From IMG/VR virus record IMGVR_UViG_2617270959_000004: DNA of 19,373 bases; one strand, 5' to 3'. The notes under the pieces were generated by a model, which saw only the letters and a program-made list of their open reading frames with translations, ran no database searches and was not told the origin of the DNA. A program made the position numbers and the translations under genes. Source of the DNA: a virus. Lineage: Duplodnaviria > Heunggongvirae > Uroviricota > Caudoviricetes. Shown piece after piece: positions 925-9,145 of the stretch (its first letter is position 1; each line of letters begins with the position of its first letter).

Positions 925-3024
925 ATGGGTTTTTCATCAGCCCGAAATTTGGGAAGGGACATATCGGCAGGATTTTCCCCACCACGTCGCATGCCGATTT
1001 CGGAGGCTGTTAAAAAATTCATGCGTGTTCCCAAGGGGGCTGGTAACTCGGTGCCATGGGATCCTGAACTGACACCCTACATCATTGAGCCCATGAACTG
1101 CCTGGCATCGCGTGAATACGATGCGGTGATTTTTGTTGGTCCTGCGCGAACAGGGAAGACCATTGGTCTGATCGATGGATGGATTGTCTATACCATCGTT
1201 TGCGATCCTTCGGACATGCTCGTTGTGCAGATGACCGAAGATAAGGCCCGCGAGCATTCTAAAAAGCGCCTCGACAGAACGTTCAGAAGCAGTGCGGCGG
1301 TAAAGAAAAGAATGAGTCCACGTCGTAACGACAATAATGTCCATGATAAGACGTTCAGGGATGGCTCGTTCCTTAAAATTGGTTGGCCCTCGGTCAACAT
1401 TATGTCGTCGTCGGATTACCGGTTTGTCGCCTTAACCGATTACGACCGTTTTCCGGAGAATATCGACAGCGAGGGTGATGGTTTCTCCCTGGCCTCAAAA
1501 CGTACCACCACATTTATGTCCGCCGGGATGACTCTGGTGGAGAGCTCGCCGGGACGTGACATCTGCGACAGCAAATGGCGACGTAAGTCGCCTCATGAAG
1601 CGCCACCGACGACTGGTATTCTTTCCCTTTACAATCGTGGTGACCGCCGCCGCTGGTACTGGCCATGTCCGCACTGCGGTGAATATTTTCAGCCAGCTAT
1701 GGATGCCATGACCGGCTACCGTAATGAACCGGATCCCTTTAAAGCCAGTGAGACGGCGTATCTACTTTGCCCGCACTGCAGCGGCATTATCACTGCGGAG
1801 AAAAAGCGTGAGCTCAATAGTGCAGGAGTCTGGTTGCGTGAAGGTCAGGTCATTGATCGTAACGGCAACGTTTCCGGTGAACCGCGCCGCTCCCGTATCG
1901 CCAGTTTCTGGATGGAAGGGCCAGCTGCTGCGTATCAGACCTGGGCGCAACTGGTTTACAAATTACTGACTGCAGAACAGGAGTATGAAGCGACAGGAAG
2001 CGAAGAAACACTCAGGGCGGTTATCAACACCGACTGGGGATTGCCTTATCTTCCTCGTGCCAGCATGGAGCAACGAAAAAGTGAACTGCTTGAGCAGCGG
2101 GCAGAGCCAGTTCCTTCCTGCAGTGTGCCGGATGGCGTTAATTTCCTTGTGGCGACAGTGGATGTTCAGGCGGGACGTCATCGCCGTTTTGTGGTTCAGG
2201 TAACTGGCTATGGCAGTCGTGGCGAACGCTGGATTATTGATCGTTACAATATCACGCAGTCATTGCGCAGTGACTGCGACGGGGAGAGCCAGCGAATTGA
2301 TCCGGCCAGCTATCCGGAAGACTGGGATGTCCTGCTGACGGATGTTTTTCATAAAAGCTGGCCGCTGGCCTCCGATCCTTCTCAACAAATGCGACTGATG
2401 GCAATGGCGGTGGACTCCGGCGGTGAAGACGGGGTCACTGATAATGCCTATAAATTCTGGCGTCGTTGCCGTCGTGATGGCCTTGGTAAACGTATTTACC
2501 TGTTTAAGGGCGACAGCATCCGGCGCGCAAAACTGATCACCCGTACATTCCCTGATAACACCGGACGAACGGGCCGACGGGCGCAGGCCGCAGGTGATGT
2601 GCCGCTCTGGCTTCTTCAGACGGATGCACTGAAAGACCGGGTGAATAACGCGTTATGGCGTGACTCGCCAGGTCCCGGCTATGTGCATTTCCCTGACTGG
2701 CTGGGGAGCTGGTTTTACGACGAACTGACGTATGAAGAGCGGAGCAGTGACGGGAAATGGAGTAAGCCGGGTCGCGGTGCCAACGAAGCTTTTGACCTGA
2801 TGGTGTATGCCGAGGCTCTGGTCATTCTGCATGGATACGAAAAGATCCGCTGGCCGGATGCACCGGAGTGGGCGAGCCGGGAAACCTGGCTGGAGTGTGT
2901 CCCGGACAGTACCGAACCGTCACCCTCACCGGAACCGGTATCCACGCCTGTTAAAAAACAAAAACGGAAGAAAACAGTAACTGACGATGTTAACCCCTGG
3001 CTGACTTCCGGAGGATGGTTATGA
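925..3024 (+). CDS. Terminase large subunit, gpA family
   Basis: 699-aa ORF with AGGAGG at 915-920; Walker A VGPARTGKT at 1138-1161; paired CPHCG/CPHCS motifs as in lambda gpA-type terminases; located upstream of portal. Confidence 0.9.
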   Translation: MGFSSARNLGRDISAGFSPPRRMPISEAVKKFMRVPKGAGNSVPWDPELTPYIIEPMNCLASREYDAVIFVGPARTGKTIGLIDGWIVYTIVCDPSDMLVVQMTEDKAREHSKKRLDRTFRSSAAVKKRMSPRRNDNNVHDKTFRDGSFLKIGWPSVNIMSSSDYRFVALTDYDRFPENIDSEGDGFSLASKRTTTFMSAGMTLVESSPGRDICDSKWRRKSPHEAPPTTGILSLYNRGDRRRWYWPCPHCGEYFQPAMDAMTGYRNEPDPFKASETAYLLCPHCSGIITAEKKRELNSAGVWLREGQVIDRNGNVSGEPRRSRIASFWMEGPAAAYQTWAQLVYKLLTAEQEYEATGSEETLRAVINTDWGLPYLPRASMEQRKSELLEQRAEPVPSCSVPDGVNFLVATVDVQAGRHRRFVVQVTGYGSRGERWIIDRYNITQSLRSDCDGESQRIDPASYPEDWDVLLTDVFHKSWPLASDPSQQMRLMAMAVDSGGEDGVTDNAYKFWRRCRRDGLGKRIYLFKGDSIRRAKLITRTFPDNTGRTGRRAQAAGDVPLWLLQTDALKDRVNNALWRDSPGPGYVHFPDWLGSWFYDELTYEERSSDGKWSKPGRGANEAFDLMVYAEALVILHGYEKIRWPDAPEWASRETWLECVPDSTEPSPSPEPVSTPVKKQKRKKTVTDDVNPWLTSGGWL

Positions 3025-3233
3025 ACCAGAATGATATCGAAGCCATGATTCAGCGTTATACGGAAGCTGAAATGGCGGTGCTGGACGGAAAATCCGTCAC
3101 CTTTAATGGTCAGCAGATGACCATGGAAAACTTATCTGAGATCCGGCAGGGACGGCAGGAGTGGGAGCGCCGCCTTGCGGCTCTGATTACACGACGACGG
3201 GGGCATCCCGGGTACCGGCTGGCGAGGTTCTGA
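3021..3233 (+). CDS. gpW-like head completion protein
   Basis: 70-aa ORF between terminase and portal, the lambda W position; ATGA start/stop overlap with the terminase stop; GGAGG 6 nt upstream; C-terminal RRRGxPG resembles remembered lambda gpW (...RRRGPAGFYV). Confidence 0.6.
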   Translation: MNQNDIEAMIQRYTEAEMAVLDGKSVTFNGQQMTMENLSEIRQGRQEWERRLAALITRRRGHPGYRLARF

Positions 3234-8391: not shown

Positions 8392-8401
8392 GGAGGTGGT
8401 A

Positions 8402-9145
8402 ATGACCACACCAAATCCACTGGCAAAGACGAAAGGTGCGGGGACGACGTTCTGGATGTATACCGGCAACGGCGATGCGTTTGCGAACCCTTTGTCGGAC
8501 ACTGACTGGCTGCGTCTTGCGATGGTGAAGGATCTGCAACCTGGCGAAATGACCGCTGATGCAGAAGATGACACTTATCTCGATGATGAAGATGCAGACT
8601 GGAAAACGACAACCCAGGGGCAGAAATCCGTTGGTGATACTTCGGCGACGCTGGCCTGGCGTCCGGGTGACAGCGGGCAGAAAAAACTGGTTCAGTTGTT
8701 CGACTCCGGTGAAGTCTGCGCGTTTCGTATCAAATATCCCAACGGCACTGTTGATGTTTTCCGTGGCTGGCTGAGCTCACTGGGTAAAACCATTGCCTCA
8801 AAAGACGTGATGACCCGCACTGTGAAAATCAGCGGTGTGGGGCGTCCGTATCTGGCAGAGGAAGGCACTGAAACCGTGAGCGTTACCGGGCTGACAGTAT
8901 CACCGGCGTCTGCCAGTGTAAAAGTGGGAGCAACCACCACGCTGACCTTTACAGTAAAACCTGACGGAGCCAGTGACAAAGCGATCAGTGTGCATTCGTC
9001 AGATCCACAGACTGCCACGGTTACCCTGAACGGACTTGTGGCCACGGTAAAAGGCGTGAAGCAGGGCAGTGTCAGCATTGTGGGCATGACCGCTGACGGG
9101 AATTTTGTGGCTGTGACTGCGGTGACTGTCAGCGCAGCAGGTTAA
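8402..9145 (+). CDS. V: Major tail protein V with C-terminal Ig-like domain
   Basis: AGGAGG 6 nt upstream; translation closely matches remembered lambda gpV (VKGAGTT, YLDDEDADW, NGTVDVFRGW...). Confidence 0.92.
   Translation: MTTPNPLAKTKGAGTTFWMYTGNGDAFANPLSDTDWLRLAMVKDLQPGEMTADAEDDTYLDDEDADWKTTTQGQKSVGDTSATLAWRPGDSGQKKLVQLFDSGEVCAFRIKYPNGTVDVFRGWLSSLGKTIASKDVMTRTVKISGVGRPYLAEEGTETVSVTGLTVSPASASVKVGATTTLTFTVKPDGASDKAISVHSSDPQTATVTLNGLVATVKGVKQGSVSIVGMTADGNFVAVTAVTVSAAG

Follow-up and report, generated by a model that had tools for sequence, protein, structure and literature searches.

Layout of the late operon

The stretch analysed here, called the window throughout, comprises the 19,373 nucleotides (nt) of the virus record IMGVR_UViG_2617270959_000004 in IMG/VR. 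From position 710 to its end at 19,373 it very probably represents the late operon, which encodes the structural proteins of the virion, of a lambdoid Escherichia coli prophage belonging to the group of phages cdtI, mEp460 and Tritos, an operon made up of at least four blocks that differ in their closest relatives and carrying joints that were inherited. Gene order was read from the listing of open reading frames (ORFs), from Pfam scans and from the way RefSeq annotates an E. coli prophage of 99.9% identity, and describes one rightward operon with every gene on the + strand. Each gene was compared with those of five outgroups, lambda (NC_001416), Gifsy-1, Gifsy-2, VT1-Sakai and HK97; the ends of nucleotide high-scoring segment pairs (HSPs) were mapped, and breakpoints were located by the maximum chi-square method with permutation, by sliding-window identity and by switching of the nearest outgroup. 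The nearest outgroup switches block by block: it is Gifsy-2 or VT1-Sakai for the heads, Gifsy-1 for the tail genes Z to M, lambda for L through residue 980 of J, and VT1-Sakai for the end of J together with lom.

We take membership in the cdtI/mEp460/Tritos group to mean a colinear structural operon whose head and tail genes alike reach a nt identity of about 95% or higher. Over 710–19,373, identity to the window amounts to 97.7% in Tritos, 96.4% in cdtI and 95.8% in PhiR47_1, at a coverage of 95–99%, and single colinear HSPs run through 710–17,856 in cdtI and 710–18,375 in Tritos. A megablast search of phage records returned colinear matches over 88–95% of the window (Tritos 97.9%, cdtI 97.1%, mEp460 96.0%, PhiR47_1 95.8%), with Ayreon and others also matched. 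Prophages in many E. coli chromosomes, all from complete genomes and from several countries and hosts, match 710–19,373 in one piece at 99.9% identity. One of them, the prophage of strain 300033 (NZ_CM128588), has this identity over 710–19,373 and is identical at every base of 925–9145. At least 80% of the window is present in 1789 of the 5426 complete E. coli genomes, with a median of 13 matching places per genome.

The head module occupies 710–7391. It opens with the 3′ end of a small terminase (TerS) gene (710–916; DUF1441, Pfam profile positions 97–144 of 147) that is cut by the insertion sequence IS1; the remnant is 100% identical in amino acids (aa) to TerS of cdtI and Tritos and 52% identical to that of Gifsy-2. 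Next lies the large terminase (TerL) of the gpA family (925–3024; Pfam GpA_ATPase and GpA_nuclease), with aa identities of 24% to lambda A, 72% to Gifsy-2, 71% to VT1-Sakai and 100% to Tritos. A small protein at the W position, that of the head-tail adaptor (3021–3233), is assigned by gene order; it is 77% identical to its VT1-Sakai and 49% to its Gifsy-2 counterpart, its DUF6148 match is weak and below the cutoff, and protein comparison found no match to lambda W. The portal (3233–4741; Phage_portal_2, E = 9.5e-82) has a lambda-family fold and is distant from gpB (23% aa identity over 41% of its length), with 78% identity to the portal of VT1-Sakai and 64% to that of Gifsy-2. The gene at 4686–6713 is a single ORF of 675 aa in which a ClpP-like prohead protease (CLP_protease, residues 31–191), a scaffold and a major capsid protein (Phage_capsid_4, residues 375–672) are fused. 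In RefSeq it bears the name 'ClpP-like prohead protease/major capsid protein fusion protein'; it aligns to its Gifsy-2 counterpart at 69% aa identity, covering 97% of its length, and none of lambda C, D and E matched it significantly. The module closes with a capsid cement or decoration-type protein (DUF2190; 6800–7123; Phage_cement_2, E = 1.5e-20), 59% identical to that of Gifsy-2 and without a match found in lambda, and with a head completion protein at the FII position (7116–7391; the Pfam 'Gifsy-2' family PF13856, E = 1.8e-17, and a weak match to Phage_attach (FII)), 57% identical to that of VT1-Sakai, 45% to that of Gifsy-2, and without a match found in lambda or Gifsy-1.

These genes form a head module of the Gifsy-2 type: protease, scaffold and capsid share one ORF with a ClpP-like N-terminus and a capsid C-terminus, and the accompanying genes for DUF1441 TerS, gpA-family TerL, portal, DUF2190 cement and PF13856 protein follow in order at 45–72% aa identity to Gifsy-2. 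Across 925–7391, the head proteins are 45–78% identical to those of Gifsy-2 or VT1-Sakai, and have no match or at most 24% identity in lambda and Gifsy-1. The lambda-type set (Nu1-A-W-B-C/Nu3-D-E-FI-FII) is absent apart from the distant A (24%) and the partial B (23%) relationships; no significant protein match to lambda Nu1, W, C, D, E, FI or FII was found in the window, and blastn gave no similarity to lambda anywhere in 925–7600.

The tail genes have the set and order of lambda, Z-U-V-G-T-H-M-L-K-I-J, followed, again as in lambda, by lom, with all tail Pfam families in order and aa identities to lambda of 26–98%. The proximal tail module (7403–13,296) is 26–56% identical to lambda in aa and has Gifsy-1 as its closest outgroup (56–76%). 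It consists of Z (7403–7993; Minor_tail_Z; 40% aa identity to lambda), U (7990–8391; Phage_tail_U; 53%), V (8402–9145; Phage_TTP_12 and Big_2; 55%), G (9206–9592; Phage_TAC_2; 31%), T (9601–9930; Phage_tail_T; 38%), the tape-measure gene H (9902–12,967; TMP_2/Tape_meas_lam_C; 26%) and M (12,967–13,296; Phage_min_tail; 56%). Nucleotide similarity to lambda in Z to M amounts to 60–70% and is confined to 7937–8862 and 12,829–13,340 (60% over 12,901–13,340); none was found over 8862–12,829. The Z to H proteins of VT1-Sakai are as distant from those of the window as lambda's are (26–57% aa).

Two places in this module have features of their own. Lambda-type phages produce their G-T tail chaperone by a −1 frameshift at a slippery heptamer close to the end of G. 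At the G/T overlap of the window (9580–9592), T is read in the −1 frame of G, and from 9580 this frame continues open into T; the candidate heptamer at 9580–9586, before the G stop codon, reads GGAAAAG compared to the canonical GGGAAAG of lambda. In H, the segment 11,000–12,500 combines a strong positive AT skew (0.2–0.3) with a reduced GC content; over 11,101–11,400, cdtI, Tritos, PhiR47_1 and the E. coli 23AR1183 prophage all match the window at an even 93%, and the E. coli 300033 prophage at 100%.

The tail-tip module, L, K, I and J residues 1–980 (13,306–18,298), is 93.0% identical to lambda in nt overall, and lambda is its nearest outgroup. Its parts are L (13,306–14,004; 93% aa identity to lambda), K (14,010–14,753; 86–96%), I (14,651–15,298; 78%) and J residues 1–980 (15,359–18,298; 98%). 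K is an ORF of 247 aa with an N-terminal JAB/MPN domain and NlpC/P60. It is 96% identical to lambda over the 199 aa of lambda's annotated K and, by tblastn, 86% identical over 93% of the 247-aa ORF; since lambda DNA thus encodes most of the longer form, the difference in length is one of annotation only. Over the same module, the proteins of VT1-Sakai are only 60–84% identical to those of the window.

The remainder of J (18,299–18,754) encodes its C-terminal specificity, or receptor-binding, region (Ig_GpJ_C, J residues 1001–1131), which is of VT1-Sakai or Stx-phage type. From residue 981 to the end, J is 99% identical in aa to VT1-Sakai, 43% to lambda and 40–41% to cdtI and Tritos; in nt, this end of J is 97.8% identical in more than 50 Stx-converting or PPompW phages and 99.1% identical in PhiR5_1. 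A lom-family outer membrane protein gene (18,822–19,373; Ail_Lom, E = 5e-109) runs off the end of the window, and its product is 97% identical to that of cdtI, 86% to that of VT1-Sakai and 40% to that of lambda. In lambda host-range hybrids, exchange of the end of J alters receptor specificity. The exchange seen here predicts a host receptor other than LamB, which lambda uses.

On the left, the phage DNA is bounded by the 3′ 709 bases of an IS1-family element (1–709, + strand), which lies outside the mosaic and whose terminal repeat, ending in AAGTTGGAGTCATTACC, closes at 709. The segment is 89–97% identical to the IS1A element in E. coli 23AR1183, with its best matches among IS1F and IS1-family transposases. 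It interrupts the DUF1441 small terminase gene at 709/710, leaving the last 68 codons (710–916). No complete E. coli genome covered at least 80% of 560–860, which spans this junction, and the exact 42-nt junction pattern was not found among the GTDB species representatives. With its small terminase gene disrupted by IS1, this copy of the prophage probably cannot package its DNA. The IS1 copy carries TAG at 482–484, at a place where insB of IS1A has TGG, and its transposase is therefore probably defective.

Joints between the blocks

The boundary between heads and tail (Joint 1) is an intergenic spacer of 11 nt with a Shine-Dalgarno sequence (7392–7402), set between the TAA at 7389–7391 and the ATG at 7403. 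Nucleotide similarity to Gifsy-1 begins at 7402, one base 5′ of the Z start codon, and extends colinearly at 66–75% to 18,249, and the similarity of the heads to VT1-Sakai and Gifsy-2 ends at 7125 and 7156, respectively; we place the joint in the spacer for these reasons. This boundary is detectable through comparators other than lambda only.

The lambda-like block begins about 18 codons into L (Joint 2; 13,355–13,365). The maximum chi-square breakpoint falls at 13,365, with a chi-square of 518 compared to a maximum of 22 in 1000 permutations, and separates 63% identity to lambda on the left from 93% on the right. In the alignment, identity to lambda is continuous from about 13,364 on, and within L it climbs from about 60% to at least 90% in about 50 nt. 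To the right of the joint, nt identity to lambda is 93% over 13,341–14,830 and 95.9% over 15,131–18,250. The intervening 14,831–15,130, inside gene I, is a divergent patch with only 67.7% identity, in which a small segment is replaced relative to lambda; its flanks are at 93% and 96%, and a significant second-level maximum chi-square breakpoint was found at 15,139 (74 versus a permutation maximum of 28).

Joint 3 lies inside J, at codon ~982 (18,296–18,304), before the receptor-binding domain and just upstream of the Pfam C-terminal domain. In a four-way alignment, lambda, Tritos and the window part from one another after GAAAACTGT, while the window stays identical to VT1-Sakai. The blastn similarity to lambda ends at 18,304, with none found beyond, and the window continues at 98–99% with VT1-Sakai. 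The two sides of this joint have reciprocal relationships, as expected of an exchange module for J specificity: residues 1–980 are 98% identical in aa to lambda and 68% to VT1-Sakai, compared to 43% and 99%, respectively, from residue 981 on. All three joints (7392–7402, ~13,360 and ~18,300) are mapped to gene or domain boundaries.

These positions amend an initial annotation that had been made from the sequence alone and that described non-lambda heads joined to a near-lambda tail, with one or more joints in the head-tail joining region and another inside J. The mosaic relationship to lambda is real, as nearest relatives switch by block across sharp nt boundaries. The heads are indeed only remotely lambda-like, as TerL, the portal, the unmatched capsid fusion and the blank blastn comparison all attest, and Z, U and G are, as proposed, moderately similar to lambda. 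The estimate that similarity extends through the first ~980 residues of J was accurate, for it ends at 18,296–18,304, and the joint predicted inside J coincides with the three-way divergence there. The annotation had also counted V, M, L, K, I and this part of J as very similar to lambda; this holds for L, K, I and J, but V (55%) and M (56%) belong in the class of U. The supposed rise in similarity toward J is in fact a stepped profile, in which aa identities of 40, 53, 55, 31, 38, 26 and 56% for Z, U, V, G, T, H and M give way to 93% in L. A boundary does exist in the head-tail joining region, at 7392–7402, but the main step relative to lambda, at ~13,360 in L, was missed because V and M had been overrated.

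Origin of the mosaic

The annotation delimited its mosaic as 925–9145, which covers TerL to V only, although its text extended to J (18,754), and it set the mosaic against the alternative of uniform identity to a single known phage. Such uniform identity is what the alignment returned: over 925–9145, the window is 99.1% identical to Tritos, with every 300-nt window at 96% or above, 97.8% identical to cdtI, and without a single difference from the 300033 prophage. Because 925–9145 is uniformly near-identical to Tritos and to an E. coli prophage, the joints are inherited features of a known phage lineage. Isolated phages and about one third of complete E. coli genomes carry the arrangement as well, so that no joint arose in this particular sequence.

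The same profile might have been produced without any recombination, had the window and lambda descended vertically from one ancestor while heads and tape measure evolved fast and tail-tip proteins slowly. Such descent would agree with the identical Z to J gene order, with tail proteins that all fall in the same Pfam families and with the generally fast evolution of tape-measure and chaperone genes (H 26%, G 31%). Variation in rate cannot, however, change the nearest relative from Gifsy-2/VT1-Sakai to Gifsy-1, to lambda and to VT1-Sakai in successive blocks. It is also at odds with Gifsy-1, which shares its tail with the window and has lambda-type heads, with the abrupt rise in nt identity inside the single gene L, with a fall from 97% to unalignable sequence inside J, and with a fused ClpP-capsid ORF whose architecture differs in kind from the C/Nu3/D/E genes of lambda. 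Vertical descent is thus highly improbable, and the incongruent nearest neighbours and intragenic steps effectively refute it.

That a cdtI/Tritos-type phage gained a lambda-like tail tip or a Stx-phage-type J end recently, in this strain, seems very unlikely as well. The C-terminal region of J together with lom does set the window apart from cdtI and Tritos, with the J end standing at 99% to VT1-Sakai, and over L to J(1–980) the nt identity of the window to its own relatives (94–96%) is no higher than to lambda (93–96%), which suggests ongoing exchange there. But the exact combination, including the J end and lom, is found at 99.9% over 710–19,373 in many unrelated complete E. coli genomes, which excludes a new hybrid specific to this strain; furthermore, in PhiR55_1 and PhiR47_1, too, the backbone is the same and the end of J is related, and a lambda-like L–J block occurs in all members of the group that were examined. 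The probability that the window is an assembly chimera, in which reads of different prophages of one genome were joined, is negligible. The many similar lambdoid prophages of an E. coli genome can confuse short-read assemblers, and an IS1 is located at the left end of the window, yet the ORFs are intact across all joints. A chimera is rejected because the contiguous 18.7-kb arrangement recurs in closed chromosomes and in the independently isolated phages Tritos, cdtI, mEp460 and the PhiR phages.

We therefore retain recombination followed by inheritance of the whole arrangement as the explanation of the blocks. By the standard mechanism of lambdoid phage evolution, phages that infect a cell together and prophages resident in it would have recombined, both homologously and illegitimately, and so generated the junctions; homologous exchange probably took place in conserved flanking sequence, such as the stretch of J ahead of 18,296. 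Selection would then have kept only those junctions that preserve function, namely at the boundaries between head and tail, tube and tip, and scaffold and receptor-binding domain. The arrangement as a whole is inherited, and the isolated phages and E. coli genomes that carry it agree with the window at almost every base. Three points weigh against this explanation: (i) the evidence for recombination is indirect; (ii) the deep joints (head/tail and M/L) were placed by incongruent similarity among only five outgroups; and (iii) the moderate, uneven identities of Z to M to lambda (26–56%) could partly reflect gene-specific evolutionary rates and not extra joints.

Chi sites (GCTGGTGG) are absent from both strands of the whole window, in which 1.2 would be expected by chance. 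An enrichment in Chi sites, located for the most part toward the right genome end, is reported for phages of the Tritos class (PMC12315714); with zero sites in the window, this enrichment is not visible in the part of the genome analysed here.

The lambda-like block itself appears to be freely exchanged across lambdoid lineages. It is common to every member of the cdtI/mEp460/Tritos group examined, and L-K-I-J(1–980) is 93–98% identical in nt between lambda and otherwise unrelated Gifsy-2-headed phages. One may tentatively go further and regard L-K-I-J(1–980) as a segment homogenised across the whole population and maintained by frequent homologous exchange among co-resident prophages, with fixed hot spots at L codon ~18 and J codon ~982, although we consider this somewhat doubtful; if true, it would add quantitative detail to the mosaicism already known from lambdoid phages and would not be a new phenomenon. 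In Gifsy-2, two morons (a lom homologue and sodC) lie between M and L at 31,238–32,400, a place that corresponds to about 60 nt upstream of the start of the lambda-like block in the window. Exchange or insertion may have occurred repeatedly at the M/L boundary.

Comparison with known phages

From the small terminase through J, gene content, gene order and joints are the same in the window as in Tritos (OV696610), cdtI (AB285204 / NC_009514), mEp460 (JQ182728), Ayreon and the E. coli prophages. The differences are local. Tritos and cdtI differ from the window in the receptor-binding end of J, and Tritos is without lom at the position where the window has it. In cdtI, divergent patches are found in Z (80% aa; 86–87% nt over 7500–8100) and H (76% nt over 12,301–12,600), and in PhiR47_1 the 5′ half of TerL is different (69–78% nt, from 925 to about 2100). 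Such patches point to continuing exchange of small segments among the members of the group. None of these close relatives shares the window's IS1 in the gene for the small terminase.

The outgroups share only parts of the arrangement. The Salmonella prophage Gifsy-2 (NC_010393), which PMC12315714 cites as the published prototype of the fused 'tripartite' capsid gene, has the same type of head module, but its nt identity to the window is just 64–74%, its Z is not alignable with the window's Z in DNA, and its J is split. The Stx1-converting phage VT1-Sakai (AP000400) likewise has heads of the same type (50–78% aa), with a capsid gene broken by IS629 and a split J. Gifsy-1 (NC_010392), also a Salmonella prophage, carries heads of the lambda/phage-21 type (A, W, B, C, D, E, FI, FII), whose only resemblance to those of the window is an identity of at most 24% in TerL and portal. 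A relationship to HK97-type phages, which the initial annotation had suggested for comparison, was rejected: no head matches were found, the tail-tip proteins are 27–37% identical in aa, and blastn gave just two short matches.

The window is accordingly best labelled the late operon of a cdtI/mEp460/Tritos-type lambdoid prophage with Gifsy-2-type heads, a lambda-like tail tip and a Stx-phage-type J end; neither 'lambda variant' nor 'new hybrid' is an apt name for it. Beyond correct annotation its importance is little, and the corrected map (7392–7402, ~13,360, 14,831–15,130 and ~18,300) shows neatly how lambdoid phages exchange modules at the boundaries of genes and domains. Both halves of the initial interpretation, the head-tail mosaic and the exchange within J, are already published for this group of phages. 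A study covering cdtI, mEp460 and Ayreon, among others, showed that the phylogeny of the J specificity region (the last ~170 residues, about 960–1132) conflicts with that of the remainder of J and that the region spreads as a module of its own (PMC6646904), and lambdoid phages with Gifsy-2-like heads, in which protease and coat genes are fused, and lambda-like tails have been described together with their mosaic relationships, with Tritos listed as a prototype class (PMC12315714). The pattern in the window is thus already known and belongs to the ordinary, well-documented mosaicism of lambda-like phages.

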